From: Alphaproteobacteria bacterium
GTDB lineage: Bacteria > Pseudomonadota > Alphaproteobacteria > Bin95
Direction: 5' to 3'
Assembly (NCBI GenBank): GCA_965222315.1
Contig: OZ244951.1
Span: 962,407 to 1,026,406 of the forward strand
DNA: 64,000 nucleotides
Part shown: piece by piece, positions 10,922 through 36,972 of the stretch
Position numbering within the stretch: the first letter of the stretch is position 1
Layout: each line of letters starts with the position of its first letter
The notes under the pieces: generated by a model
The model's input: the letters and a program-made list of their open reading frames with translations, nothing else
Told to the model about the DNA's origin: nothing
Database searches by the model: none
Position numbers and translations under genes: made by a program

Positions 10922-10977
10922 TTAGAAGCGCTCATGTTTCGGTGGCATGCGCGCTGGAAGCCAAGGAGCGCTTTGCT

Positions 10978-13275
10978 ATGGCAGTCGCAGTTTCATATCC
11001 GGGCGTCTATATCCAAGAGGTACCCAGTGGCTCGCGGGCCATTGCCGGGGTTCCGACATCGGTCGCCGCCTTTGTCGGCTACACGGCGCGGGGCGCGGTT
11101 AACGATGCGACCCAGATATTCTCGTTTGCCGATTTCGAGCGGCGCTTTGGCGGCCTGAGCCTTGACAGCGACCTCAGCTATACCGTGAACCATTTCTTTC
11201 TGAATGGCGGCGCGACGGCCTATATCGTAAGGGTCGCCTCAGGCGCTTCGGCGGCATCCGTAGGGTTGCTGACTGCACCCGGGGGCACGCTCACCCTGAC
11301 GGCGTCAGCCAAGTCCGAAGGGCAGTGGGGCAATGCGCTGCTGCTGAGCGTTGACTATGCAACGTCAAACCCGGCGAGCTTGTTCAACCTGACCGTCCGC
11401 GAGTTGGTGGAACGCAGCGGCCGCTTGGTCGAAGCCCGGGTCGAGACCCACCGCAATCTCTCGATGAACGCCTTCTCCGGCAATTATGCGGTGGATGCCG
11501 TTAGCGCGGCCTCAGACCTGATCGAACTGACCAACGAGGGCGCGGCCATCAACGGGCGCGGCGAATCCCGTAGCGGTGATCTGCTGGCCCTGCCGGCCGC
11601 GCTCGGCGACGATGTCCGGCGGCTCGCGGTTTCTCTGGACGGCGGATCGTTCTACGAGTTCGACATTTTCGATGCAGGCGCGCTGCCAGCCGATCTGCCT
11701 ACGCTCGCCGGAGCTATCCAAACCCGTGTGCGGGGGCTTGAGCCCGGAAACGGCGCATTCGACAATTTCGACTGTGATATCGACAGCAACCAGATCCGCG
11801 CGCGCTCCGGCACCAGCAACGACCAGCGTTCGTCGGTCACTTTTGCGCCTGCCTCGATCCGCAGCGCGGCGGCGGCGCTGACGCTGGGCCTCGCCCACGG
11901 CGGACGGGAGACGTCTGCCGCGGCTTCTGTCCGGCCTGCCGTCACCGGCACGGCGAGTGACCGCATCCCAGATTTCGCGGCCCTGGTGTTCGCCGATCCG
12001 GAGCAAATGACGGTCAATCTGATCGATTCAGGCGGCACGACCCTCGCGAGCGAAACTGTAACGTTGCAGGACACGGGCGCGGCGACCCCGGTCAACGCGC
12101 CAACCACCTTGGATGAAGCCCGCTCCGCCATAGAGGCGGCGATGCGCGCCAGCAGCAACCCGTCCTTCTCGCAAGCGCGGGTGAGTGTCATCGACCGGAC
12201 GCTCTACATAGTACCAGGCGGCGATACAGCCTCGAACCGGTTCGAATTTACCGGCGCGGGTGCAGCGACTCTGACCCTTTCCAACGGCACTGGCGGCGTC
12301 CCCAATGTGGCGGCCTTTCAACTCGGCACCGGCCCGACGGTTCAGGCGCAGCAGGCAGGCACGCCCGGCAATGATGGCTCCCCGCCAAGTCCGGTTGAAA
12401 TTCAGGGCTCGCGGGCGGCCAAAACCGGCCTCTTTGCCCTCGAAGACGCGGATCTGTTCAATATGCTGAACATTCCCGGCCTTTCCGACGCCGGCGTCCT
12501 CGCAACCGCGATCAGCTACGCCGAAGAGCGCCGGTCGATGATCCTGATTGATATGCCGTCGACAGTTAACGATTTCGATGAGGCGCGGGACTGGATCAAC
12601 GATCCGGCGAATGCCGGGCTCCGCCACCGCAACGCCGTGAGCTATTTCCCACGGGTGCGGCTCGCCGATCCATTGCAGGGCAACCGCCTGCGCACCTTCG
12701 CCAATGCCGGGTTGATGGCAGGGCTCTATGCCCGCACGGATGCCGCGCGCGGCGTCTGGAAAGCACCGGCTGGGATCGAAGCACGGTTGCGCGGGGTGCA
12801 GGCGCTGGAATATGTGCTGAGCGATCCGGAAAACGGCGTTCTGAACCCGCTCGGCCTGAACTGCCTCCGCACCTTCCCCGTGACGGGCTCCGTCAGTTGG
12901 GGCGCGCGTACCATGGTCGGGGCGGACGCCCTGGCGAGTGAGTGGAAATATGTTCCGGTCCGCCGCATCGCGCTCTTCATCGAAGAAAGCCTCTACCGCG
13001 GCACCCAGTTCGTCGTGTTTGAGCCGAATGACGAGCCGTTGTGGGCGCAAATTCGGCTTTCGGTCGGCGCCTTCATGAACAACCTGTTCCGCCAGGGCGC
13101 GTTCCAGGGCTCTACCCCGCAGGAAGCCTATTTCGTGCGCTGCGACAGTTCGACGACGACCCAGGCCGACATTGACCTGGGCATCGTCAACATCGCCGTA
13201 GGCTTCGCGCCGCTGAAACCGGCTGAGTTTGTCGTCATTCAAATCCAACAACTTGCCGGGCAAAGCCAGGCTTAA
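10978..13275 (+). CDS. eCIS/phage contractile tail sheath protein (766 aa). ATG 10978 is preceded by AAGGAG; the track ORF starts at GTG 10942.
   Basis: Hallmark N-terminus VSYPGVYIQEVPSGSRAIAGVPTSVAAFVGYTARG of the contractile sheath (Afp2-4/Pvc2-4/T4 gp18 family). The C-terminal conserved sheath core is present. Confidence 0.85.
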   Translation: MAVAVSYPGVYIQEVPSGSRAIAGVPTSVAAFVGYTARGAVNDATQIFSFADFERRFGGLSLDSDLSYTVNHFFLNGGATAYIVRVASGASAASVGLLTAPGGTLTLTASAKSEGQWGNALLLSVDYATSNPASLFNLTVRELVERSGRLVEARVETHRNLSMNAFSGNYAVDAVSAASDLIELTNEGAAINGRGESRSGDLLALPAALGDDVRRLAVSLDGGSFYEFDIFDAGALPADLPTLAGAIQTRVRGLEPGNGAFDNFDCDIDSNQIRARSGTSNDQRSSVTFAPASIRSAAAALTLGLAHGGRETSAAASVRPAVTGTASDRIPDFAALVFADPEQMTVNLIDSGGTTLASETVTLQDTGAATPVNAPTTLDEARSAIEAAMRASSNPSFSQARVSVIDRTLYIVPGGDTASNRFEFTGAGAATLTLSNGTGGVPNVAAFQLGTGPTVQAQQAGTPGNDGSPPSPVEIQGSRAAKTGLFALEDADLFNMLNIPGLSDAGVLATAISYAEERRSMILIDMPSTVNDFDEARDWINDPANAGLRHRNAVSYFPRVRLADPLQGNRLRTFANAGLMAGLYARTDAARGVWKAPAGIEARLRGVQALEYVLSDPENGVLNPLGLNCLRTFPVTGSVSWGARTMVGADALASEWKYVPVRRIALFIEESLYRGTQFVVFEPNDEPLWAQIRLSVGAFMNNLFRQGAFQGSTPQEAYFVRCDSSTTTQADIDLGIVNIAVGFAPLKPAEFVVIQIQQLAGQSQA

Positions 13276-13297
13276 CCACGCGAAGGAGGGCACCGTC

Positions 13298-13813
13298 ATG
13301 GCCGAATTCAGCGTTAACCCGCAGCGCTTCGACCCCTACAAAAACTTTAAGTTCCGCGTGCGCTGGGATGGCCGGTTTGTCGCCGGAGTCTCCAAGGTCG
13401 GCGCACTGAAGCGCACGACGGAAGTCGTGGAGCATCGCGTCGGCGGTGACAGCTCGACCAGCCGCAAATCCCCCGGGCGCTCCAAGTTCGAACCGATTAT
13501 GCTGGAGCGCGGCGTCACCCACGACGCCGACTTTGAGGCCTGGGCCAACCTCGTTTGGAATGTCGAAGCGGGATTGGGGGCGGAAGTCTCGCTCGCGAAC
13601 TTCCGCAAAGACATCATCATCGAGATGTATAACGAGGCCGGCCAACTCGCGATTGCCTACAAGGTGTTCCGCTGCTGGGTCTCGGAATTCCAGGCTCTGC
13701 CGGAATTGGACGCTAATGCGAATGCCGTCGCCATTCAGTCAATCAAACTCGAAAATGAGGGCTGGATTCGCGATACCGAGGTGGCCGAGCCAACCGAGCC
13801 GACGCTTGGTTAG
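13298..13813 (+). CDS. eCIS inner tube protein (T4 gp19/Afp1-like, 172 aa). Start at ATG 13298 after GAAGGAGGG.
   Basis: MAEFSVNPQRFDPYKNFKFRVRWDGRFVAGVSKVGAL.. matches the conserved N-terminal strand pattern of the tube family. It sits immediately after the sheath. Confidence 0.75.
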   Translation: MAEFSVNPQRFDPYKNFKFRVRWDGRFVAGVSKVGALKRTTEVVEHRVGGDSSTSRKSPGRSKFEPIMLERGVTHDADFEAWANLVWNVEAGLGAEVSLANFRKDIIIEMYNEAGQLAIAYKVFRCWVSEFQALPELDANANAVAIQSIKLENEGWIRDTEVAEPTEPTLG

Positions 13814-13844: not shown

Positions 13845-14537
13845 ATGACCTCTACCCTCTCGCCTGCCGCACTGCTCCAGGCTTGGGAAACCGCTGAAGG
13901 ACGAAGCACCATCGACCGGCCGCTGGTTCTGCTGTGGGCGGCGGGCGGCGGTGCTGATTTGGCCGATCGCCCCTTGGTGGAGCGCGACCGGGCGCTGCTG
14001 GCGCTCCGCCGGGCGACGTTCGGGGATGAGATGGTCTGCGTGACCGACTGCCCGGCCTGTGGTGAACGCCTGGAGATGGCTGTATCAGCCGCCGCCTTGG
14101 TCGATGCCCTGCCTGCGGCGGAGCCTGAAGTGCTGATGGCGGCGGGCCAAAGTGTGACGGTGCGACCGTTCTCCAGCCGCGACGTGGCCTTGGCCGCTTC
14201 AGATGCGGACGATTCGGAAACCGCCCTGGTGCGGCTTGCCTCCACGTGTGAGGGCGAGCCGTGGCAAGCGGCGCTCGCCTTGGCGGCAGAGCGCTTGCAG
14301 GAAATCCAGGCGGCCGCCGAATTGCGCTTCACGCTGACATGCGGGGCATGCGGCGAGGTTTGGACAGAGGTGCTGGACGTTGCTGCCTATGTCTGGGCGG
14401 AAGTGAGGACCGCCGCCTACCGCCTGTTGGGTGAGGTGGCGGAGATCGCAAGGGCGCTCGGCTGGTCAGAACGGGAGATTCTGGCTTTGAGCCCGGCCCG
14501 CCGCGCCGCCTATCTCCAGATTGCGAGAAGCGGATGA
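13845..14537 (+). CDS. eCIS-associated hypothetical protein (230 aa). It contains CxxC...CxxC pairs (CPACGERLE; CGACGEV), suggesting a zinc-ribbon.
   Basis: RBS GGAGGTG. Translationally coupled to downstream genes (ATGA overlap at 14534). Two CxxC motifs seen directly. Confidence 0.45.
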   Translation: MTSTLSPAALLQAWETAEGRSTIDRPLVLLWAAGGGADLADRPLVERDRALLALRRATFGDEMVCVTDCPACGERLEMAVSAAALVDALPAAEPEVLMAAGQSVTVRPFSSRDVALAASDADDSETALVRLASTCEGEPWQAALALAAERLQEIQAAAELRFTLTCGACGEVWTEVLDVAAYVWAEVRTAAYRLLGEVAEIARALGWSEREILALSPARRAAYLQIARSG

Positions 14538-15277
14538 CGAATCCTCTCGTCAATCTGATCGCCCGTGTCACCGGCCAGGCCGAGCCCCGCCTTCGCCCGC
14601 GCATCGCCTCGCGCTTTGAGGGCGGTGCGATGGCGGGCGAAGGCTTCCAGGAAGTGGCGGGCGAGCAGATTGTCCGCGCCCCGGAAACGCCAGCGCCTTC
14701 AATCGCTCCCCGGCCGCCCCAGCAACCGGCGCCAGCCGCCGAAACGATTGCTACCCAGCAGGGGAACACGGCAGCGCCTGTCGGGCAGCACGAACCCATC
14801 TTTCAGACATCAATCCGGGTAGAGCAGGAGGTTCCTGCTGCCCTGGTGCGCTCAACCGGAACCGCCACTCCGCCACCGCCCTTGATGCCGGAGGTTACGT
14901 CCTCCCCGGAAAACCATCACGAGACGGCACGGGAACCGGCTCTACCAGCGAGCCCGTTTGAGCCGGAGCAGGGGCCTCTATCGCAAGAGCCTCCCGAGCC
15001 CTTGCTCCCCCTGGAACCTCGGAAATTTGAACAAGGCCCGCCACAGCCTGCGCCGGATAGCGAGCCTTTCGCAGGGCTCTCCGCCCCCCAACCCAGCCGC
15101 CAACAGTCGGCAGCCTCCGGTGCCGTGCAGAACGAGCCACCGGAAATCGTCATCAATATTGGCCGTATTGACCTCCGTTCCCCGCCAGCCGCGCCGCCCG
15201 CGCCTCGCCCGCGCCCGCAGCGGCCCAAAACGACCGATCTCGGCGACTATCTGCGCGGCAAGGGGGGCAAGCGATGA
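14534..15277 (+). CDS. Pro/Ala/Gln-rich low-complexity protein (247 aa). Candidate tail-length tape-measure-like (Afp14 analog) or disordered scaffold.
   Basis: 4-nt start/stop overlaps on both sides. Extreme Pro/Glu/Gln content. Position upstream of the DUF4255 and ATPase genes, as for Afp14. Confidence 0.35.
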   Translation: MTNPLVNLIARVTGQAEPRLRPRIASRFEGGAMAGEGFQEVAGEQIVRAPETPAPSIAPRPPQQPAPAAETIATQQGNTAAPVGQHEPIFQTSIRVEQEVPAALVRSTGTATPPPPLMPEVTSSPENHHETAREPALPASPFEPEQGPLSQEPPEPLLPLEPRKFEQGPPQPAPDSEPFAGLSAPQPSRQQSAASGAVQNEPPEIVINIGRIDLRSPPAAPPAPRPRPQRPKTTDLGDYLRGKGGKR

Positions 15278-16611
15278 GCAACGTGCTTGCGATTGCGGCG
15301 GTGACCCAGTTGCTGAAGGACATGCTGAACGATGCCATGATCAATGGCGAGGTGAGTCAGGTGATGGGCGCGGATTTCGCCGTGACCGCGCTCCCGCCCG
15401 ACCGGGTGGTGAACGACCAGGCCGATCAGCAGCAGCCGACCCTGAACGTGTTTCTGCACCGCATCACGCCGAACGCGGCGCTCCAGCAGGATGACTTCCC
15501 GACCCGGGACAGCTCCGGCAGGCTAATCCGGCGGCCGCGGCTCGCGCTCAACCTGCATTATATGCTGACGGCCATCGGGGCTGACGAGCTTCAGGCGGAG
15601 ATCCTGCTCGGCTACGCCATGCAGATGTTTCACGAAACGCCGATCCTGGGCCGCGAGCAAATCCGAAGCGCGCTGCAACTCGCCGGCCCGCCCGATGACT
15701 TGCTGCCAGACAATCTGGGCTTGGTTCAGGCCGCCGCCCTCGCCGATCAGGCGGAACTCATCAAGATCACGCCGCATACGCTGTCCATGGACGATATGTC
15801 GAAGATGTGGACAGCGTTGCAGGCCCGCTACCGCACTACGGTCGCCTATGACGTGTCCCTGGTGCTGATCGAGCGTGAACTGCCGACCCGCCCGACCCTG
15901 CCGGTCCTCAGCCGCGGCGGCCTGCCGGACCCAGTAACGGGCCGCGACCCCGGCGTGCTGGTCCAGCCTAACCTGAATGCAACCGCGCCCTGCCTGCTTT
16001 CCATTGAGCCGCTGGACGGCCAGCCGGTGATGCGCCTCGGCGGGCAGGTGGCCCTGACCGGCGTCGGCTTCACCCGTGGCGATGCCCGCGTTCTTTTCAC
16101 CGAGCCCGGCACCGGCAGCGTGCTCGAACTCGCCCCGTTGGCCCCGGCAACCGACCGGCGGTTGGTCGTGCAACTGCCCGCGGGGCCGCCGCTCGCGGGC
16201 GCGCATCCGCTCGCCAACAGCGCCGCGGATCCGGGTGCATGGCGCATCGGGCCGTTTCACATAGAGGTGCGTCTGACTGAGCCCGATGGCCGCGAAACCC
16301 TGACCAACGCCCTGCCAGCCGCACTAGCGCCCGCAGCGGTACCCATGGCTGCGCCGGACCCCGGCGGCACCCTCATCACCATCGATACCGAGCCGCGCAT
16401 CCGCGCCGGTCAGCGCGTTGCCATCATCGTCGGGGGGGAGATGCAATTGCTGACTTCCCCCGGCGCACCGGCGGCGCAGGTGCAGGCGGTCTTTGCGGGC
16501 CTGCCATCCGGGGTTTCCCTGCCGATCCGCCTGCGGGTGGATGATGTCGATAGTCCGGTGATTGACCGCAGCACCGATCCGCCGAGCCTGATTACGGTGG
16601 CGATCCCATGA
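15274..16611 (+). CDS. DUF4255-type eCIS tail terminator/cap-like protein (Afp16/Pvc16 analog, 445 aa).
   Basis: N-terminus MSNVLAIAAVTQLLKDMLNDAM matches the conserved start of DUF4255 proteins found in eCIS loci. It is directly upstream of the AAA+ ATPase. Confidence 0.55.
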   Translation: MSNVLAIAAVTQLLKDMLNDAMINGEVSQVMGADFAVTALPPDRVVNDQADQQQPTLNVFLHRITPNAALQQDDFPTRDSSGRLIRRPRLALNLHYMLTAIGADELQAEILLGYAMQMFHETPILGREQIRSALQLAGPPDDLLPDNLGLVQAAALADQAELIKITPHTLSMDDMSKMWTALQARYRTTVAYDVSLVLIERELPTRPTLPVLSRGGLPDPVTGRDPGVLVQPNLNATAPCLLSIEPLDGQPVMRLGGQVALTGVGFTRGDARVLFTEPGTGSVLELAPLAPATDRRLVVQLPAGPPLAGAHPLANSAADPGAWRIGPFHIEVRLTEPDGRETLTNALPAALAPAAVPMAAPDPGGTLITIDTEPRIRAGQRVAIIVGGEMQLLTSPGAPAAQVQAVFAGLPSGVSLPIRLRVDDVDSPVIDRSTDPPSLITVAIP

Positions 16612-18533
16612 ACCAACCTGCCGCCTTCGAACCTCGACCATCTGCAACCGGGCGCATGCGCCAGGCGATGGCGGCGGCGGTTGCTGACCTTGGCGAGCGA
16701 TTGGCCGCCTTGTCGACTGGCGAGGAGCCGCAGCCCAAAGACGTGGCCCGCGATCTGGACTCACCGCTTTCCATGCTGGCGGACCTTTTCGGTCTGAATG
16801 GGGCGGAGCAGACCATGCTGCTGCTCGCCGCTGCGGCGGAACTGGAGCCACGCCTTTCCGACCAGATCCGTGCCATTTGCGGCAGCGAGCGCCCGGATGC
16901 CGGCCTCGCCCTGGCGCTAACGGCGGAGGAGGGGTGGGAGGCGCTCTGCCCGGAAGCGCCCCTGCGGCGCTGGCGGCTGGTCGAGCTTGTCGGCAACGGC
17001 CCGATGCTGCGGCGCTCGCTGGTGCTGGACGAGCGCATCACGCATTTTCTGATGGGCATTAACTATTGCGACGGGCGGCTGGAAGGAGTGGTCCGGCTGA
17101 TCGAACCCTCCCGACGCATCGGCGAACGGGAGCAGGCAGCCGCCGGCGCCATCACCGCCGCGTGGGATGAAACCGGCTGCCCGCTGACGGTCATCTTGCT
17201 GGCCAGTCCCGACCGCATCGCAAACCGCGAGGTAGCGGCTCACGGCGCCCGTGGTCTCCGCCTGCGTCTGCTGGCGATCGACGCCGCCGATATTCCGGGC
17301 GACCCGGCGGCGAGGCATGGCTTTGCGGTCCTTCTGGAGCGCGAACTGGTGCTCTCCGGCGCTGCGGCCTTCATTGAAGTTTCCGATGCGGCCGCCGCCC
17401 CGCAAGCCCAGCGTCTGGCCGACAGCCTGCAGGGGCCAACAATACTGGCAGGCGGCGATCCCCCGTTGCCCGCGCGTAGCCCCCGCCGCCGCATCGACCT
17501 TGCCGCGCCGGATCGGTTCGAGCGCCGGGCGTTTTGGCAGGATGCCCTCGGCATTCAGGCGCATGCGCTGGGGCCGGGTCTCGACCGGCTGGCGGAGCAG
17601 TTTGCGCTGGACAGGGGCGGGATCACGGCTACCGTCGAGAGTGCCGTCAATAGCGCGCCCGTCCCGCCGGAAAAGCTGCTGGGTAGCCTCTGGCAGGCGG
17701 CTCGGGTGCAGGGGCGCCGCCATCTGGACAGCCTTGCGAGCCGGATCGAAAGCCGTGCTACCTGGGATGACCTGGTGCTGCCCGCCGAGCCGATGGCGCA
17801 ACTGCGCGATTTGGCGGGGCATGTCCGTGAGTCCTGGCGTGTCCACCAGGAATGGGGCTGGGCCGCGAAGAGTGACCGCGGCCTGGGGGCGGCGGCGCTT
17901 TTCGCCGGGGCCTCCGGCACGGGCAAGACCCTGGCGGCAGAGGTGCTGGCCGGCGAATTGCAGCTCGATCTCTATCGCATCGACCTCAGCCAGGTGATCA
18001 GCAAATATATCGGCGAGACAGAAAAGAACCTTGCCCGCATTTTCGCGGCGGCGGAGGACGGCGGCGCAATCCTGCTGTTCGACGAAGCTGACGCCCTTTT
18101 CGGCAAGCGGAGCGAGGTGAAGGACAGCCACGACCGCTACGCCAACGTTGAAGTCTCCTACCTCCTCCAGCAGATGGAAGCCTACCGTGGCCTGGCGATC
18201 CTCACCACGAACCTGAAGAGCGCGGTCGATACCGCATTCCTTCGACGGCTGCGGTATGTGGTGAACTTTCCGTTCCCAGATGCTGCGGCGCGAGCCGCGA
18301 TCTGGGCGCGGATCTTCCCGCCTCAAACCCCTCTGGACCGTGTTGAGCCTGCACAGCTTGCCCGGCTGAGCATTACCGGTGGCGCAATCCGCTCCATCGC
18401 TTTGAATGCCGCATTCCTCGCCGCCGCCGATGCCAAAGCGGTAGCGTCCGCTCACATTCTGACCGCGGCAAGGCGCGAATACGCGAAGCTGGAGAAGCCC
18501 TTCACCCAGGCGGAGCAGGGGGCCTTCCGATGA
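16608..18533 (+). CDS. eCIS AAA+ ATPase (Afp15/Pvc15-like, 641 aa).
   Basis: Walker A GASGTGKTLAAEVLA. Walker B ILLFDEADALFGKR. Sensor/arginine finger region. Single C-terminal AAA module with a long N-terminal domain, typical of the eCIS ATPase. Confidence 0.85.
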   Translation: MNQPAAFEPRPSATGRMRQAMAAAVADLGERLAALSTGEEPQPKDVARDLDSPLSMLADLFGLNGAEQTMLLLAAAAELEPRLSDQIRAICGSERPDAGLALALTAEEGWEALCPEAPLRRWRLVELVGNGPMLRRSLVLDERITHFLMGINYCDGRLEGVVRLIEPSRRIGEREQAAAGAITAAWDETGCPLTVILLASPDRIANREVAAHGARGLRLRLLAIDAADIPGDPAARHGFAVLLERELVLSGAAAFIEVSDAAAAPQAQRLADSLQGPTILAGGDPPLPARSPRRRIDLAAPDRFERRAFWQDALGIQAHALGPGLDRLAEQFALDRGGITATVESAVNSAPVPPEKLLGSLWQAARVQGRRHLDSLASRIESRATWDDLVLPAEPMAQLRDLAGHVRESWRVHQEWGWAAKSDRGLGAAALFAGASGTGKTLAAEVLAGELQLDLYRIDLSQVISKYIGETEKNLARIFAAAEDGGAILLFDEADALFGKRSEVKDSHDRYANVEVSYLLQQMEAYRGLAILTTNLKSAVDTAFLRRLRYVVNFPFPDAAARAAIWARIFPPQTPLDRVEPAQLARLSITGGAIRSIALNAAFLAAADAKAVASAHILTAARREYAKLEKPFTQAEQGAFR

Positions 18534-18784
18534 GCCGTCAGCGCGTGACACTGCATATCGATCGCATCGTTATCGACGGGCCGCACATGTCCCGCGCCGC
18601 CCTGGCGGACGTAATTTTGGCGGAATTGCAGCGTGCGCTGTCAGCGCCCGGCGCGCTGGATGCCTTGAAGGGGGCCGGGTCCGTGCCGCGGGTTAACGCG
18701 GGCGAAGTGCGCCCCGCCAATTCGGGTCCCACGGGTCTCGGCACCGCCATCGCCCACGCAACCATGGGAGCGTTGAAGCGATGA
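18530..18784 (+). CDS. Small hypothetical protein (84 aa) translationally coupled between the ATPase and the first cargo candidate. Possible adaptor/chaperone.
   Basis: ATGA overlaps at both ends. No recognisable motif. Confidence 0.35.
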   Translation: MSRQRVTLHIDRIVIDGPHMSRAALADVILAELQRALSAPGALDALKGAGSVPRVNAGEVRPANSGPTGLGTAIAHATMGALKR

Positions 18785-20226
18785 AGACCCGCGCCAAACG
18801 CTCTCAAACAACCGCCAATCCTATTGCATTCGCCGGAAATGGCGGCCCGGCGGCCGCTGCGCCAGCGAGCGCGCCGCAACCCAAGCTGCAGGACCCGAAC
18901 CGCTTTCAGCAGGTTCACCAGAAGGTCCGGGTCTCCGGTCCTACCCGCCCGCCGCCCTCCGGCGGTGGCCCCGCGCAGAAGCGTAAGCCCTGGGTCGATC
19001 CCTCGGCGCCTGGCAAGATGGACGGTACTGATGGCGTCATCTTCAACCAGGCGTTCAATTTCCTCGATATGCGGAACTTCACGACCCCGTCGTCGAAAAA
19101 CACGACGGAGGCGAACCTGGACACCGATGCGGTCGATGCCCACAACCGGGTAAAGGGTCACTATCCGCAAATAACCTCTCCGCTCTCCGACAGCGCGATT
19201 GAGGGTGCGGTCAGCGTGTTCAAGCCATCGTCGATCAAAGGCGACATGGATTACCTGAATCAGTGGATGGACAATTTTATCGGCAAAATGTCGAAGGCCG
19301 ATGAATTTGACATTGATCCTTCGAACGCGGCCTACCGCGCGATGATCGAGAAACTGATCAAGGACAAGACCGTCGGCCCCAAAATCCTGATCCTCGCCTC
19401 CCGGCAATCGGCCTTCGCCCGTGGTGACGGCAGCAAGCGGGAGGTTTTCGTCCATTCGAAAGTGAAAGCCGCCGACCGGCGCACCACGCTGATCCACGAG
19501 CTGGTGCACTTCTACGCACACAAGACCTACCGGAAGTGGGTCGAAGCCTCGAAGGACGAGCGCCATTACAACGAGGGCCTGACCGAGTGGCTCGCGCGGA
19601 AAGTGATGACCGCCTCGGAATTGAGCGGCCGGAACAAATACCAGAACCGCGTCGATACGGTGAATAAGCAGATCGCGGCGCACATCCCGGAAGACGGAAT
19701 CGCCAGGGCCTTTTTCGGCGGGGAGGTCTGGCGCTTCGAAACCCGCAGCGACGAGGCGCGCGCGGCCTTCAAGACCGCGACGGGGATCGAGGAGGGAGCC
19801 AGCGCCGATGTGGAGCGGGAAGCGTCCCGTACCGGCGCGGGTCTGGTCCAGACCGTGGAACCGCGCAAGCACTACCGTTTCCTGAACCTGGGCTTTGCCG
19901 AGTCCCAGCCGAAAAGCGAGCATGAGGCGACCTTCAAGGGGGTAAAGGCTCAGACATTCGATAAGGATTCCTCGCTGAAATTCCGCTTTGTCGGCCATGC
20001 TTCCAGCCCCGGCAGTGAGGCCGCTAACAGGGAAGTCGCGCGCAAACGCTCGGTTGCCTTCTACCGGATGGCCCGGCGGGAAGGCGTTCCGTGGAACCGG
20101 CTGGCTGATGCCGCCCGCCCGCCGCATTTCGGCGAGAGCAAGCCCACCGTGACCGAAGAGGACGCCATCACCCGCGCCATGAACCGGCGGGTAGAGATGT
20201 TCCTGGTGAAGGGAACTGGGCCATGA
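18781..20226 (+). CDS. Putative eCIS cargo/effector. It has a disordered Pro/Gly-rich N-terminus, a central HExxH zinc-metallopeptidase-like motif (LIHELVHFYAH) and a C-terminal OmpA/MotB-like peptidoglycan-binding domain.
   Basis: HELVH motif seen directly. C-terminal ..FRFVGHASSPGSEAANREVARKRSVAFYRMARREGVPWNRLADAARPPHFGESKPTVTEEDAITRAMNRRVEMFLV matches the OmpA_C consensus (GHxD/S..G...N..LS..RA...L...G......GES.P.....NRRVE). Confidence 0.5.
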   Translation: MKTRAKRSQTTANPIAFAGNGGPAAAAPASAPQPKLQDPNRFQQVHQKVRVSGPTRPPPSGGGPAQKRKPWVDPSAPGKMDGTDGVIFNQAFNFLDMRNFTTPSSKNTTEANLDTDAVDAHNRVKGHYPQITSPLSDSAIEGAVSVFKPSSIKGDMDYLNQWMDNFIGKMSKADEFDIDPSNAAYRAMIEKLIKDKTVGPKILILASRQSAFARGDGSKREVFVHSKVKAADRRTTLIHELVHFYAHKTYRKWVEASKDERHYNEGLTEWLARKVMTASELSGRNKYQNRVDTVNKQIAAHIPEDGIARAFFGGEVWRFETRSDEARAAFKTATGIEEGASADVEREASRTGAGLVQTVEPRKHYRFLNLGFAESQPKSEHEATFKGVKAQTFDKDSSLKFRFVGHASSPGSEAANREVARKRSVAFYRMARREGVPWNRLADAARPPHFGESKPTVTEEDAITRAMNRRVEMFLVKGTGP

Positions 20227-22199
20227 GCGAGCGCGTCTTTACCGGTAACGATTTCGCCCCCGTTGCCGCCCGCAGACCGGAACCGGCGGAAAAGGTCCGC
20301 ATGGCCCTCGGCCTGCAAGCGAAGTTGCGGGTAAACGCCCCCGGCGACCACTGGGAACGGGAAGCCGACCGGATTGCCGATGCTGTCGTCGCAGAGCGAC
20401 CGGTCCCTCTCCAAAGCCCATTGCCGGTATCGCCGGCGCTCCAACGCCAGCCGGAGGAGGAAGAAGAGGAACTCCAGGCCAAGCCGGAGCCGCTACAGCG
20501 TCAGGCCGAGGAGGAGGAAGAAGAGGAATTGCTTCAGCCGAAGGCAGAGTCGCTACAGCGTCAGGCGGAGGAGGAGGAGGAAGAAGAAGAGATGCTCCAA
20601 CCCAAAGCCGGTGGCATCGCTCATGCTGAGTCCACGCCTGGCCCCGGTTTCGCAGCCGCGCTGGCCAGTGAAAGCCAAAGCGGCCAGGGCATCGACCATG
20701 CGACCCGCGCTGCCTTCGAGCCCCGCTTCGGCCGCGACCTCTCCTCGGTGCGATTGCACACGGGCGCGAGAGCCGAGCACCTCAGCCGTCAGATCAACGC
20801 GCGGGCCTTCACGCATCGCAACCACATCTATTTTGCCAACGGCCAGTTGGATACCCAAAGCCGTGAAGGCCGCCGTCTCCTCGCCCATGAGATCACCCAC
20901 ACCTTGCAACAGGGCGAGGACAGAGGCGATCTGGCGCGCGAGCCGCTACAGCGTCAAACCGGCCCGGGAACGCCTGCGGCTGCGCCCGCTCCCGGTGCCG
21001 CCCCTGGACCCGCCGCAGCACCGGCGGCTCCGACGCGACCGACTTCCGTCACGTTTAACTTTGATCCGACCATCGCCATTCCGCAAACACCGGGCGGGCT
21101 CACAGGCATGACCGCGAGCACGAACGGCACCAATGTCACTTGGTCGATCGCGGCTCATACCGCAGCCTCTGTAGCCGCGGGCACAACCATAAACGCTTCT
21201 ACGGGCGCTATCGCGCTCGATGCCGGACAGGTTGGGGGCCAGCTTCGGGTGACGGCAACCAATTCCGCAGGTTTTGCATTCAGCGATTTCCGGGTCGCCT
21301 CCACACCCACCGGCATCGATGCAACCTCGGTCTTGTCTGCTCTCAGCGGGACATCCAGCCCCTATGGCGCTGCCTTCCAGCACACCTTCACTAGCGCCAA
21401 TGGGTCTGCGACCGTGCTAGAGCAGCTGCGTATTGGCGAGCGGTTTCCGACAGCACCGACGCCGGCGGCTGCGACTCACCGTTTCGTCCCGCCGGCTTGG
21501 CCGTTTCACCCGCCGAGCTTCACCTTGAGCACTGGCACGCTTGCCAACAATGCTGCCGGCGCGTTCGTGCTCGACGCTAACGGGGAGTTCAATGCGCCGC
21601 CCGCAGGCTCGACCCTGATCCGGGGGGACAATGTCTCGGTTCCGCACGCCGCCATTGATGCAGGCGATCATGTGCAGAGCCATACGACGCCAGCGCCCAC
21701 GAACCGACTGCCGGTGACATTCTCGCTGGACCAGCAGTTCCACTTCTTCAATCCGCGCGCCGCTTCCGGCAGCCGCTGGACGCATTTCACTACGACGAAC
21801 CACAGCCGCACGCTCAGACGTAGCGGCACAGATCTGGAGGTGGTGACGACGGTCAACGGTGAGGAGCATGTGGACGATTACCAAGGCCCGCCCGCGTTCA
21901 CGAACCTCACTGCATCGCCCGTCAACACGCCGAAAAGCCGGCCGGCCCCGCCAGGCGGAGGAGCAGCCCCAGCTGCACGGACGGTTGCCCTCAGCGTCGA
22001 GCAAATCGGCGACCTGCCGGCTGGCCAAAGTGTGAGGTGGCGCTTCATCGGCAACCGGCGCGGCTGCACCCTCACACCCGATCCGAGCGACGCCACCCAG
22101 GCTGAGTTGACCGTCGGCACGACGGCTGGAACCGTTACAATCGAAGTATCGTTGAATACTGGCGGTAATGCCGACCGCGTTCAGGTGAGGATCGTTTGA
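20223..22199 (+). CDS. DUF4157-domain putative eCIS toxin/effector (658 aa) with an inserted Glu-rich tandem repeat and a C-terminal beta-rich domain of unknown function.
   Basis: DUF4157 hallmarks: GDHWEREADRIADAVV ... FEPRFGRDLSSVRLHTGARAEHLSRQINARAFTHRNHIYFANGQ...GRRLLAHEITHTLQQG (HExxH). DUF4157 is known to mark eCIS-associated toxin genes. Confidence 0.7.
   Translation: MSERVFTGNDFAPVAARRPEPAEKVRMALGLQAKLRVNAPGDHWEREADRIADAVVAERPVPLQSPLPVSPALQRQPEEEEEELQAKPEPLQRQAEEEEEEELLQPKAESLQRQAEEEEEEEEMLQPKAGGIAHAESTPGPGFAAALASESQSGQGIDHATRAAFEPRFGRDLSSVRLHTGARAEHLSRQINARAFTHRNHIYFANGQLDTQSREGRRLLAHEITHTLQQGEDRGDLAREPLQRQTGPGTPAAAPAPGAAPGPAAAPAAPTRPTSVTFNFDPTIAIPQTPGGLTGMTASTNGTNVTWSIAAHTAASVAAGTTINASTGAIALDAGQVGGQLRVTATNSAGFAFSDFRVASTPTGIDATSVLSALSGTSSPYGAAFQHTFTSANGSATVLEQLRIGERFPTAPTPAAATHRFVPPAWPFHPPSFTLSTGTLANNAAGAFVLDANGEFNAPPAGSTLIRGDNVSVPHAAIDAGDHVQSHTTPAPTNRLPVTFSLDQQFHFFNPRAASGSRWTHFTTTNHSRTLRRSGTDLEVVTTVNGEEHVDDYQGPPAFTNLTASPVNTPKSRPAPPGGGAAPAARTVALSVEQIGDLPAGQSVRWRFIGNRRGCTLTPDPSDATQAELTVGTTAGTVTIEVSLNTGGNADRVQVRIV
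20439..20604 (+). repeat. Three in-frame ~57-60 nt tandem repeats encoding LQRQ(P/A)EEEEEEE(L)LQ(A/P)K(P/A)E(P/S) inside the DUF4157 gene.
   Basis: Direct repeat visible in both the DNA and the protein (PEEEEEELQAKPEPLQRQAEEEEEEELLQPKAESLQRQAEEEEEEEEMLQPKA). Confidence 0.8.
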
Positions 22200-33093: not shown

Positions 33094-36000
33094 ATGAGTG
33101 GCGACTACAGCAGAGACACCTTCGACGCCCTCCGCGACTATGCCGGCGTCTTCCTGCAACAGGGCCGGGCCGCGCTCGATGCCGACTGGAACGAGATGGT
33201 CGCCATCTTCGAACGCCGCATCCGCGCCGCGACGGTCGATACCATCGGCCGGGCCGTGGTGCCGCTGGAAACGCCTCTTGGCTTCCAGATCCAGCTTGCG
33301 GCAGGCCCCTCCGTTTCCATCGGCCGCGGCCGCAAATACCTGCACGGCCTGTTGCTCGAGTGCCACGGCCAGTTTGATGCAAGCACCGCAGTATTCGACC
33401 GCGGGCGCGACGGCGCCAACGGGCCGGAGGGCGTGCTGGACGAACTGATTTCCCCGGCAGGTGGTGACTTCGTGCCCTACACCAGTCAGCCCTATTGGCC
33501 AACACCGGAACCCTTGCCACAGTCGAGTGGTCCGCATCTGGCCTATGTGGTCGCCTGGCAACGCGAGGTGACTGCGCTCGAAAACCTCGCCTTGCTGGAG
33601 CCCGCCCTGGGCGGGCTCGACACCGCAACGCGCTGGCAGACAGTCTGGCAGGTGCGGTTCCTGAGCAATGTCGGTGCGAATACGACGTGCGCCACGCCGG
33701 ACGATCAACTGGCCGGATGGGAGGCGGAAATCGCGCCCTCCACCGCCCGGCTCACCACGCGCACCATCGAAATCGAGGATCCGGAAGATCCCTGCCTGGT
33801 ACCGCCGACCGGTGGCTTTACCGGGATCGAGAACCAGCTTTACAGGGTCGAATTGCACACGGTCGGTGCGGCGCAGACCGACGCGCGCTTCAAGTTCAGC
33901 CGCGAAAACGCCTCGGTTGCCGCCAGTATCGAGAGCTTCGGCAACCCCGCCGACCGCATCACGGTGCAGCGCATCGGCCGTGACGAGGTTCTGCGCTTCC
34001 GCGCGGGCGACTGGGTGGAAGTCACCGACGACCACCGGGAGTTCAATCACCAGTCGGGCCAGATGCTGCGGGTCGCCGTCGCTAACGAGGAAACCCGCGA
34101 GATCGAACTGGAAGGCACCATCGCTGCTGATCTGGTGCCGAGCGGCATCGGCACGGACACGCCCGCCAACCGGCGCAGCCGCCTGATCCGGTGGGACCAG
34201 CGTGGCATCATCCGCGACACCGATGGCAATCAGTGGGTGGACCTGGATGCTCCCGCCTCTGACGGTCTGATCCCCGTGCCGCCAACCGGCACTGTGCTAG
34301 TGCTGGAATCGGGGATTACGGTGGAGTTTTCCGCTGCCGCCCAGCCCACAGGCGGTTTTCGTGCAATGGACTATTGGCGCTTCGCCGCCCGCACCGCCGG
34401 TACGCAGATCGAAGAGCTTACCAGCGCGCCACCGGATGGAATCCAGCGGCATTACAGCCGCCTCGCCATCGTGACATTCCCAAATTCGGTTCAGGATTGC
34501 CGCGTCTTCTGGCCGCCCAATTTCGGCAGCGAGGCAGAGAGTTGCTGCTGCACTGTCTGCGTTACGCCGGAAACCCACAATGCCGGCGCGCTGACCATCC
34601 AGGCCGCCATCGATCAGATCGGGTCGGAGGGCGGTACGGTCTGCCTTTCCGGCGGCACCTATGTCTTACAGGCGCCCGTTACCATCGACGGCGGCGTTGC
34701 GGTGACGGTGGAAGGGCAGGGGGCGCTGACCCTGCTGGTCTATCAGGGCACCGGTCCCGCGATCCGTGTCCGCCGCTCCGCCGATATTCAGTTGCAGCGC
34801 TTCAGCATCGTGGCGCGCCTCCAAGGGACCGACGATGTCGGTGTTCCGGCAACGCCGGTCGCGGGCATCGCCTTGGAGAACACCGCGCTTGCAGCACTCC
34901 GCCGTATTGCGGTGCTGGTTGTCGCCAGCGGCGATGTCCGCAGAGATCCGGCCATCGCGCTGGATGGTGTCGCCATCGGCACCAAGATCGAAGAATGCCT
35001 GGCGCTGGCGCCGGTCGCGCTCGGGTCACTTGGCACCAGCGATGCGTTCGGCGTGCAGCAGAGCCCGGATTTTCTGGCCCTTGCCGAGCTTCGGGTGCTC
35101 GACAATATCCTGTTCGGGTCGGAAGCCGGTGTGCAGTTCGGCGGCCTTGCCATCAATATCGCCAACGCGATTTTCGACCGGAACATGGTTCTGGGCGGCA
35201 CGTCGGGCATGGACGTCAATTGGTTTGAGGCCAACCTCGGCGCGACCGCCATCGACGGCAACGCGGTCACCTCGAACGGCACCGGTCTGCGCCTCGGCGT
35301 CAATCACCTGCGATTGCAGGACAATCAGATCAGCGGAGGAAGCCAGACTGGCGACGGTGTCGATCTGGTTCCGAACTTCGTACCAGCGACAGAGATAGAC
35401 GCCCAGGTGATAGGCAACAGCATCGGCGATCTGGCTGGCAGCGGCATCCGTCTGCAAGGCCAGTTCGGCACGCTGCTTATCAAGCGCAACATCATCCGCC
35501 GCTGCCGGGAAGCCGGTATCGCCGCCACCGGCAAGCAGATCATTCGCTACACGGCTATCGACAATAATATCATTGAGGATATCGCCGACAGCGTCGATCA
35601 GCTTGGCGCGGGCGCCATCGTGCTCTCCCGGATCGAGGAGGGGCTCGTTTCCGGAAACCGTATCCGGGGCGTTGGCCAGGGCGGCGACCAGAGCCAGACT
35701 TATGTTGGTGTCGCTGTCTATGGGGTCGGCATCGTCTCGGTTGAGAGCAACACCGTATCGGAGATTGGGCCGGGCAATGCCGCCAGTCCCGCTGCCGGTA
35801 TTTGGGGACGCTTGCCCTATTTCGAGCTTTCGGCCCGTGGCAATCGTGTGAGCGGCGCGCTGACCAACACGCAGAACGACCGCTCGCTCGCCTGGATCGG
35901 CCTGTTGATCGGGGAGGCCAACACAAGGCCGAATTCCCCGGCTGCTGGTGCATTTACAGCCAGCGTCCCAGGCCTGGCCGCCGACCAGATCGTCTTCGCA

Positions 36001-36408
36001 ACCGTCGGCAATCAATGGTTCGCCGTGACCAACGAAAGCCTGCGTGCCGTTGGTCCGGTCCGCGAGCGGCAAATTCTGATCAACGCCAACCAGATCTACC
36101 ATGCGGGCGAGACCAATCAGCCGCTAGTTTCCGCGATGGATACCGGCGATGCCACGACGACCTTCACCGACAACCAGGTCCGGCTGGAAGCCATCGGCGC
36201 GGTTCCAGCCATCGTTTCGATCACCGCGCCACGGGTGATCGCCGGAAACAACGCCGTCCGCCGCCGCTCCGACCAGGACGCCATGCACATCAATGTCGGC
36301 GAGGCCGGCGCTGCGACCGTCATCGGCAATATTACGTTCGGGAACATCCGCGTCTTCCCGAATGGGCTGAACCCGCCGTTCGACGCCCTCAACTTACTCG
36401 CCAGCTAA
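33094..36408 (+). CDS. Giant tail-fibre / receptor-binding protein with right-handed parallel beta-helix repeats (1104 aa; Afp13 analog).
   Basis: Long runs of ~22-25 aa repeats with NxxxG / IxGN periodicity (e.g. VIGNSIGDLAGSGIRLQG, IDNNIIEDIADSV, VSGNRIRGVGQGG). These are typical of pectate-lyase-like beta-helix fibres. Last large gene of the operon. Confidence 0.6.
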   Translation: MSGDYSRDTFDALRDYAGVFLQQGRAALDADWNEMVAIFERRIRAATVDTIGRAVVPLETPLGFQIQLAAGPSVSIGRGRKYLHGLLLECHGQFDASTAVFDRGRDGANGPEGVLDELISPAGGDFVPYTSQPYWPTPEPLPQSSGPHLAYVVAWQREVTALENLALLEPALGGLDTATRWQTVWQVRFLSNVGANTTCATPDDQLAGWEAEIAPSTARLTTRTIEIEDPEDPCLVPPTGGFTGIENQLYRVELHTVGAAQTDARFKFSRENASVAASIESFGNPADRITVQRIGRDEVLRFRAGDWVEVTDDHREFNHQSGQMLRVAVANEETREIELEGTIAADLVPSGIGTDTPANRRSRLIRWDQRGIIRDTDGNQWVDLDAPASDGLIPVPPTGTVLVLESGITVEFSAAAQPTGGFRAMDYWRFAARTAGTQIEELTSAPPDGIQRHYSRLAIVTFPNSVQDCRVFWPPNFGSEAESCCCTVCVTPETHNAGALTIQAAIDQIGSEGGTVCLSGGTYVLQAPVTIDGGVAVTVEGQGALTLLVYQGTGPAIRVRRSADIQLQRFSIVARLQGTDDVGVPATPVAGIALENTALAALRRIAVLVVASGDVRRDPAIALDGVAIGTKIEECLALAPVALGSLGTSDAFGVQQSPDFLALAELRVLDNILFGSEAGVQFGGLAINIANAIFDRNMVLGGTSGMDVNWFEANLGATAIDGNAVTSNGTGLRLGVNHLRLQDNQISGGSQTGDGVDLVPNFVPATEIDAQVIGNSIGDLAGSGIRLQGQFGTLLIKRNIIRRCREAGIAATGKQIIRYTAIDNNIIEDIADSVDQLGAGAIVLSRIEEGLVSGNRIRGVGQGGDQSQTYVGVAVYGVGIVSVESNTVSEIGPGNAASPAAGIWGRLPYFELSARGNRVSGALTNTQNDRSLAWIGLLIGEANTRPNSPAAGAFTASVPGLAADQIVFATVGNQWFAVTNESLRAVGPVRERQILINANQIYHAGETNQPLVSAMDTGDATTTFTDNQVRLEAIGAVPAIVSITAPRVIAGNNAVRRRSDQDAMHINVGEAGAATVIGNITFGNIRVFPNGLNPPFDALNLLAS

Positions 36409-36438: not shown

Positions 36439-36972
36439 ATGGCCCGAGGCATCACCCGCATCAGGAACGAAACGTCGCTCCGTTCGCTTGCCGAGCGCGT
36501 TTACGATATCAGCGGACCCAGCCGTGCGGAAAATCTGCGCAAGGCGGAATCCGCGCTTCTCAAAGCCAACCCCCAATTGCGCCGGGCCAACGGATTTGCG
36601 GCAGGCACCGTCATTATCGTTCCGGAGGTCGGCCTGGACCGGACCGGCAGCGTCGAACTGCCGTCGGCAGACCTGGACGGCGCGTTGAACGAGGCTGCTG
36701 CCCGCATCCAACAAGTCGCCGGGGAGGCGAAGAACGGCTTTTCGATTAGTCAGGATCAACGGAAAACCGCCCTCGCCAATCTGTCGGACGAGCGGTTCAT
36801 GGCTGAACTGGTCAAGTCTGACAGGAACGCCGTGAAGTTGGCGAAGCAAGCCCAGGACACGCTCCAAAAACAGGATGCGGTAGAGGAAGAGGCGATGGCG
36901 CGCTTGAGGCGTAGCCTCAGCGAGGCATCCAAAGAAATCGACCGGCTTCAACGCCTGACGAAGGGGCGGTAG
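36439..36972 (+). CDS. Hypothetical coiled-coil protein (177 aa), the last gene of the eCIS operon. Candidate fibre assembly factor.
   Basis: Complete ORF. The C-terminal half is predicted helical (EAKNGFSISQDQRKTALANLSDERFMAELVKSD...). Confidence 0.35.
   Translation: MARGITRIRNETSLRSLAERVYDISGPSRAENLRKAESALLKANPQLRRANGFAAGTVIIVPEVGLDRTGSVELPSADLDGALNEAAARIQQVAGEAKNGFSISQDQRKTALANLSDERFMAELVKSDRNAVKLAKQAQDTLQKQDAVEEEAMARLRRSLSEASKEIDRLQRLTKGR

Follow-up and report, generated by a model that had tools for sequence, protein, structure and literature searches.

A gene at positions 18781-20226 on the forward strand of the window, a 64,000-nucleotide stretch of contig OZ244951.1 from an Alphaproteobacteria bacterium, was analysed together with the operon around it. 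By Pfam the operon is a contractile injection system, and it forms a locus of the eCIS kind (extracellular contractile injection system). On balance, the gene is read as an accessory payload (effector) of this eCIS, which would be loaded by the ATPase and injected as an envelope-acting metallopeptidase, and not as a structural part of the particle. This reading is favoured because the cargo marker DUF4157 is carried by most of the homologues, the eCIS and DUF4157-array context of the gene is constant, and an AAA+ ATPase homologue lies upstream. A preliminary description of the sequence had proposed a cargo candidate, and these same observations back it; loading and injection are what we infer from them. 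A protein identical to that of the window is held in public data (P0001). The 481-residue open reading frame (ORF) and the two motifs quoted in that description were confirmed, LIHELVHFYAH at residues 237-247 (nucleotides 19489-19521) and NRRVEMFLV at residues 468-476 (nucleotides 20182-20208). The parts of the gene are as follows.

18781-20226, forward strand: whole gene from the ORF list, a 481-residue protein without DUF4157, in which a short disordered N-terminus is followed by a probable gluzincin domain and an OmpA-like domain
18781-18891, forward strand: residues 1-37, the basic start MKTRAKRS and then a Pro/Gly/Ala-rich disordered segment (pLDDT below 50)
18892-19836, forward strand: residues 38-352, probable gluzincin-type metallopeptidase domain of about 315 residues, family-specific, including the DPxR..VH and PW motifs at residues 38-73
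19495-19509, forward strand: HELVH (H239, E240, H243), the motif for zinc binding and catalysis, unchanged in all 102 unique family sequences
19570-19587, forward strand: NEGLTE (E265, E269), presumed third zinc ligand helix by the family alignment, 21 residues past H243
19837-20223, forward strand: residues 353-481, OmpA-like domain of the OmpA_C/Pal/MotB type
19993-20004, forward strand: GHAS, residues 405-408, a non-canonical form of the G[HY]TD peptidoglycan-binding motif with Ser408 in place of the diaminopimelate (DAP)-binding Asp
20047-20049, forward strand: R423, the retained counterpart of AbOmpA Arg286, aligned with the R of LSxxRA in OmpA-like domains of the PDB
20182-20196, forward strand: NRRVE, the retained C-terminal OmpA-family motif, with N468, R469 and R470 conserved

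The homologues were searched for among 5.8 billion proteins, and 48 of the 49 found were aligned. The alignment revealed an N-terminal eCIS_core/DUF4157 domain ahead of the same central and OmpA-like modules in 41 of the 48. The window protein has no such domain; it and its three closest relatives (67-79% identity) show a clean absence of DUF4157 and keep the M[KR]xRxK start which is common to the window protein and the DUF4157-bearing relatives. Of the relatives that bear a name, Pelagibius sp. is the closest (63-65% identity). Residue conservation was counted over 102 unique family sequences. In a wider set of 110 sequences, DUF4157 lies upstream in 89, and the pair of zincin and OmpA-like domains is present in 102 of the 110. 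Forms without DUF4157 occur in the window clade, P0011, Geobacter and Bacteroidota, and those of Geobacter are 85% identical to Geobacter copies which bear the domain. From these alignments, DUF4157 was lost at least four times independently, with the N-terminal end kept each time. Because the pair was kept while DUF4157 was repeatedly lost, zincin and OmpA-like domain together form the conserved functional unit. The recurrent natural deletion with its retained N-terminal tip gives independent support for the dispensability of DUF4157 in cargo loading.

At E<1e-30, a profile of the central domain matched no more than 58 representatives in a set of 1.84 billion proteins. Its weaker matches covered the zincin core only and were again C-terminal domains of DUF4157 proteins. 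In the long members of the family, the protein is fused to the product of the next DUF4157 gene or has an extra C-terminal domain, for example a caspase. The module has no Pfam family and is newly defined here as an uncharacterised gluzincin and OmpA-like effector module. As a separate observation, in two Crocinitomix loci (L024, 186-6596, and L026, 3554-11086) the module ends ORFs of 2136 and 2510 residues, each holding two DUF4157 domains, which makes them giant fused multi-cargo proteins.

The genomic context was examined by a scan of one genome per species, which gave 22 loci in 185,579 species genomes. The gene was found in Alpha-, Beta- and Gammaproteobacteria, Geobacter and relatives, Bacteroidota, Acidobacteria, Verrucomicrobia, Calditrichaceae and Rokubacteria. 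The domain pair is kept in nine or more bacterial lineages of phylum or class rank. At every informative locus the gene lies in or beside a DUF4157 array or eCIS locus, and the layout of DUF4157 genes with an AAA+ ATPase nearby is conserved in L001-L003, L005-L013 and L025. Two placements occur: the gene either follows the ATPase and its small ORF, ahead of the second tube gene, or comes after the tail-fibre genes at the 3' end. Its order with respect to the other DUF4157 genes is not fixed, and the Acidobacteria copy lies in a DUF4157 island. This variable placement fits an accessory cargo and not a core structural part. In the window the gene is placed two genes 3' of the AAA+ ATPase and immediately 5' of a typical DUF4157 (eCIS_core) gene. 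The gene shares an ATGA overlap with each neighbour, its ATG start codon with the stop of the upstream 84-residue ORF and its stop with the ATG of the downstream DUF4157 gene. With this overlap at both ends, the gene is translationally embedded in the operon.

The central domain was analysed for its fold and catalytic residues. Helices are placed at residues 230-244 and 260-273, and the HExxH motif with a Glu-ligand helix, as in gluzincins of clan MA, was found within a zincin fold. The zincin-like motif of the preliminary description therefore held, its catalytic residues being invariant in the 102 sequences. E265 and E269 are likewise invariant in all 102 and Y287 is kept in 101. An HExxH followed 21 residues on by NEGxTE makes a signature of gluzincins such as the M1 and thermolysin families, and the NEG motif of the window protein resembles the 'NEGFA' ligand helix of M1 aminopeptidases. 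Taken from the sequence family, the domain is a probable gluzincin-type zinc metallopeptidase with predicted activity. The earlier description had also taken residues up to about 80 to be disordered, which was not borne out. Only residues 1-37 have pLDDT below 50, and residues 38-80 belong to the folded domain because they carry a family-wide DPxR..VH motif, a helix predicted with confidence at 41-52 (pLDDT about 90) and W71, which is conserved. P39, R41, H46 and W71 are near-invariant across the family.

In the Pfam scan for a peptidase, Peptidase_M78 scored 17.1 bits against a gathering score of 22 and was matched over profile positions 19-59 only (41 of 123), so the family match is partial and sub-threshold. 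Membership of Peptidase_M78 (ImmA/IrrE) with a repressor-cleaving role was considered and rejected on this partial match and on the missing helix-turn-helix (HTH) partner; ImmA/IrrE proteins have a partner HTH repressor, whereas the window protein has none. Compared with the MA-clan gluzincins, namely the M1 aminopeptidase catalytic domain, thermolysin and the minigluzincins, the domain shows no family-level sequence membership. It also lacks the GxMEN exopeptidase motif and carries a family-specific N-terminal helical region unlike known gluzincins or M78. A search of PDB sequences with the central-domain profile returned nothing meaningful. On the question of a duplication, the central zincin and DUF4157 were compared by hhalign, which gave 33% probability, and only over the strand and the HExxH helix.

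The OmpA-like domain showed the alpha/beta OmpA_C fold. NCBIfam models of the OmpA/Pal type matched residues ~371-476 with a best value of 4.6e-9, and OmpA-like domains of the PDB matched the window protein at 2e-4. The Pfam OmpA model (PF00691) gave 16.3 bits for the window protein, below its gathering value of 27.2, while two relatives passed the threshold (P0058 with 28.5 and P0075 with 34.6) and 25 of 48 family members had an OmpA match at E<0.01. Despite the sub-threshold Pfam scores, both the OmpA-like and the zincin domain are taken as real because of the NCBIfam and PDB matches and the invariant catalytic residues. The OmpA_C match proposed earlier thus stood for the fold, the NCBIfam model, the Arg and NRRVE, and failed for the Pfam score and for the GHAS found in place of G[HY]TD.

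In AbOmpA, Asp271 and Arg286 bind the DAP of peptidoglycan (PMC12108004). The Arg position, R423 in the window protein, is Arg in 96 of the 97 family sequences that have the OmpA-like domain. At position 408, 83 family members have Ser, 7 have Asp, 4 have Asn and 2 have Thr. Compared with the OmpA-like domains of the PDB, a 4-residue insertion stands before the FGE motif. The domain also differs from the OmpA_C/Pal/MotB family (PF00691) in its sub-gathering score, its GHAS for the GHTD-type motif and its housing in a protein with no export signal. Peptidoglycan binding by residues 353-481 is, from these residues, plausible but not assured, and since the DAP-binding Asp is Ser408 the peptidoglycan-binding module of the preliminary description should not be assumed. 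The conserved change from Asp to Ser is a caution against presuming DAP-peptidoglycan binding for such domains.

The N-terminal segment is a candidate loading sequence by analogy with AlgoCIS. There, the cargo proteins Cgo1 and Cgo2 need their N-terminal region for loading but can do without DUF4157, and loading also depends on the AAA+ ATPase Alg15, a probable unfoldase of the cargo (bioRxiv 10.64898/2026.05.27.728243). Residues 1-37 of the window protein are 49% Pro/Gly/Ala, with five K/R and no D/E, and are 78% identical to those of the orthologue in the related locus L002, a conservation equal to that of the rest of the protein. The segment resembles a Sec/Tat signal superficially, being basic and Ala-rich and then reading ASA; such a signal was ruled out by the hydropathy, the Pro/Gly content and poor conservation. 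No hydrophobic core of a signal peptide was seen, the best 10-residue Kyte-Doolittle mean being 0.64 against 1.7-2.7 for the TorA, OmpA and Pal signals. The protein is Cys-free and has no transmembrane segment, which together with the low N-terminal hydropathy argues against export to the periplasm of the producer and hence against roles in anchoring and lysis. A small, soluble, Cys-free cargo with a leader of 37 residues could be a compact natural model for loading signals.

The divergence from L002 was plotted along the operon. Nucleotide identity is 82-96% and falls to 66-78% at 18700-19599, the lowest of the whole operon, and it recovers sharply near nucleotide 19600. For residues 38-352 the synonymous divergence (dS) is 0.7-1.7, which is 2-5 times as high as in the flanking genes, and the nonsynonymous divergence (dN) is 0.2-0.28. 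The OmpA-like part has a dS of 0.28 and a dN of 0.012, comparable to the structural genes. The ratio dN/dS is 0.25 for the whole gene and 0.04 for the OmpA-like part. The raised dS points to allelic recombination within the gene. The pattern suggests recombination or diversification limited to the peptidase part, with a breakpoint that would lie within the gene, separating the peptidase core from the OmpA-like domain. High divergence is usual in effector genes, and within the operon it is greatest in the 5' two-thirds of this gene. Recent horizontal acquisition was considered and rejected, as composition gives no sign of it and the GC content at third codon positions (GC3, 0.78) is level with that of the neighbouring genes.

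A course of events can be proposed for the payload reading. The protein would be made in the cytoplasm without a signal peptide, as a crude hydropathy measure indicates. Its short basic disordered N-terminus would, as for Cgo1 and Cgo2, be recognised by the AAA+ ATPase of the operon, and the protein would be unfolded and threaded into the tube lumen. After release and contraction of the particle it would be expelled into the envelope of the target cell and refold around zinc. The OmpA-like domain may then hold it to the cell wall or to some related ligand, a step made uncertain by the Ser at the DAP-binding position, and a peptide or protein associated with the wall would be cleaved by the peptidase. 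Known peptidoglycan peptidases are, to our knowledge, rarely HExxH zincins, and so a protein substrate is held to be more likely than the stem peptide of peptidoglycan. A bolder proposal, which is doubtful and offered as a speculation, takes the zincin and Ser-type OmpA-like module as a new class of antibacterial effector that would be docked at the wall and cleave wall-tethering proteins of the Lpp/OmpA/Pal type and not peptidoglycan, the natural loss of DUF4157 showing that few N-terminal residues suffice for eCIS loading. If true, the repeated loss would amount to an evolutionary experiment on loading. The main value of the analysis is a sharper annotation within an already recognised payload class.

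Several observations weigh against the payload reading. The N-terminus is short and dissimilar to that of the neighbouring 658-residue DUF4157 protein, and the 'QxKL..P.D..E.EAD' motif, widespread in DUF4157 proteins, is missing from it. The N-terminal regions of Cgo1 and Cgo2 are similar to each other, unlike those of the window protein and its DUF4157 neighbour. The position of Ser408 reads TD in all five best PDB matches, which leaves the ligand uncertain. The gene has no evident immunity gene beside it, and the tail fibre with its DUF6519 and beta-helix gives no indication whether the target is a bacterium. The toxicity of Cgo1 is independent of its HExxH motifs (PMC8894135).

The missing domain could also mean that the cargo is stranded or repurposed, that is, no longer loaded for want of DUF4157 and the E.EA motif, and decaying or acting in the cytoplasm of the producer. 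The closest DUF4157-bearing relatives do have that adjacent E.EA motif, the N-terminus does not resemble that of the cargo-type neighbour, and both dN and dS of the central domain are raised against L002. This reading is unlikely. The ORF is intact in four diverged clade members (67-79% identity), dN/dS is well below 1 with the catalytic residues invariant, the N-terminal end was kept in each of the at least four independent losses, and the DUF4157 deletion mutants of Cgo1 and Cgo2 were still loaded (bioRxiv 10.64898/2026.05.27.728243).

An effector aimed at something other than a bacterial wall, for example at a eukaryote, is quite unlikely. Here the Ser-type OmpA-like domain would bind a non-DAP ligand and the peptidase would cut host proteins. 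The Ser is a conserved state (83 of 96 family members), eukaryotes are the targets of many characterised eCIS (PMC8213781), and the pectin-lyase-like beta-helix of the tail fibre could bind many polysaccharides (PMC12923769). Set against these are the retained Arg and NRRVE motifs, the Asp in 7 members and a fold nearest to true peptidoglycan binders; a non-peptidoglycan ligand for the OmpA-like fold in an eCIS context is not known.

The gene might instead serve the producer as a cell-wall enzyme, causing lysis or wall remodelling for particle release in the manner of a phage endolysin. The eCIS particles are indeed released by lysis (PMC8213781), a peptidase joined to a wall-binding type of domain recalls the modular endolysins, and OmpA-like domains occur in phage proteins. 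The peptidase domain, however, is matched by no phage protein, the protein has no signal peptide or transmembrane segment, and the small ORFs at 18530-18784 and 36439-36972 have no match in the family libraries. Most of the family members bear the cargo marker DUF4157, and presence in only 22 of 185,579 species genomes cannot make a general release mechanism, which renders this explanation very unlikely. A structural role in anchoring had been offered as the alternative in the preliminary description. Such a part would tie the particle, or the platform on which it assembles, to the wall in the manner of TagL/TssL of the type VI secretion system; this is extremely improbable, since a cytoplasmic protein with no membrane segment or credible export signal cannot reach the wall, the conserved and apparently active peptidase domain would be left unexplained, and the family is rare, fused to a cargo marker and varied in operon position and copy context.

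The remaining genes of the operon, in their order, are given below.

10942-13275, forward strand: sheath, by Pfam
13229-13813, forward strand: gp19-type tube, by Pfam, with a listed TTG start that overlaps the sheath gene
Between the gp19-type tube and the Pvc16_N cap: two genes, by operon order
15274-16611: Pvc16_N cap, by Pfam
16608-18533, forward strand: AAA+ ATPase of the Afp15/Alg15 type with a winged-helix domain (Pfam AAA 1.6e-24, WHD 1.7e-15), presumed by analogy to be the cargo-loading unfoldase
18530-18784, forward strand: 84-residue ORF between the ATPase and the cargo array, overlapping the ATPase stop and the start of the 481-residue gene
20223-22199, forward strand: DUF4157 cargo-type protein of 658 residues (Pfam eCIS_core 1.8e-26 at residues 157-232)
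3' of the 658-residue gene: second tube-like protein, by operon order
After the second tube-like gene: hub, VgrG OB domain, PAAR-like protein and gp25, by operon order
After gp25: two Baseplate_J proteins, by operon order
33094-36408, forward strand: tail fibre of 1104 residues with DUF6519 and a right-handed beta-helix, by Pfam

Counterparts of the 84-residue ORF, 83-92 residues long, occupy the equivalent position in L001, L002 and L003, and tblastn matched it in L002, L006 and L010. Searches of Pfam, NCBIfam and PHROGs with it gave no match, and it could be a loading or assembly adaptor. The N-terminal region of the 658-residue protein carries an LQAKL..P.D..E.EAD motif followed by acidic EEEE..LQ.K repeats; a weak PKD-like match was also noted in it, and its gene differs from that of L002 by 108 nucleotides in length inside 20500-20799. 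DUF6519 is the eBAP5 baseplate-anchoring tail-fibre domain, and the 1104-residue protein is likely the receptor-binding fibre. The true start of the tube gene may be an ATG near 13298, as suggested by the 171-residue length of the L002 orthologue. After it, a 230-residue protein (13845-14537, forward strand) gave weak T4_baseplate and zinc-ribbon-like matches only, and its gene is kept at the equivalent position in related loci. On the reverse strand, a 529-residue ORF (18538-20127) spans nearly the whole 481-residue gene and is probably a by-product of the high GC content (GC3 of 0.78 in the forward frame).

The window protein was compared with known eCIS cargo. In AlgoCIS, Cgo1 and Cgo2 fill the tube lumen and consist of a disordered N-terminal region, DUF4157 and a C-terminal domain, and in Cgo1 the latter holds its own, second HExxH (PMC8894135). 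Cgo1 (ALPR1_12695, Algoriphagus machipongonensis) resembles the window gene in its eCIS operon near an AAA+ ATPase, its disordered N-terminus and the HExxH of its C-terminal region, and the relatives of the window protein match the layout of Cgo1 as published. The window protein differs from Cgo1 in lacking DUF4157 and in its much shorter N-terminal segment, and an OmpA-like domain was not reported for Cgo1.

The preliminary description had called a cell-wall-targeting payload unusual, and the literature contradicts this. SalCgo2, an HExxH cargo of SalCIS from Salmonella enterica subsp. salamae, shows toxicity in E. coli solely upon periplasmic targeting and with its motif intact (PMC13266070). 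SalCgo2 and the C-terminal metallopeptidase of VgrG2b (PDB 6H56) are both HExxH effectors of contractile injection systems acting in the bacterial periplasm. BDI_2459, a DUF4157 cargo, is active only with a periplasmic tag (PMC12210884), and EAT10 is a peptidoglycan-hydrolase toxin (PMC8213781). Danov et al. 2024 list 68 predicted eCIS toxins with peptidoglycan-binding domains, among them 'DUF4157,OmpA' proteins (PMC11297309 and its Dataset EV4). These latter are predictions of the DUF4157 cargo type with high toxin scores and an OmpA domain at the end, such as a 517-residue Candidatus Accumulibacter protein; its middle region differs from that of the window family and has no second HExxH. Peptides of the window family were not found in the portion of Dataset EV4 covered here. 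The payload class is thus already known from DUF4157-marked eCIS cargo, periplasmic HExxH peptidases and predicted peptidoglycan-binding toxins, and the window protein is an uncharacterised addition to it that lacks DUF4157.

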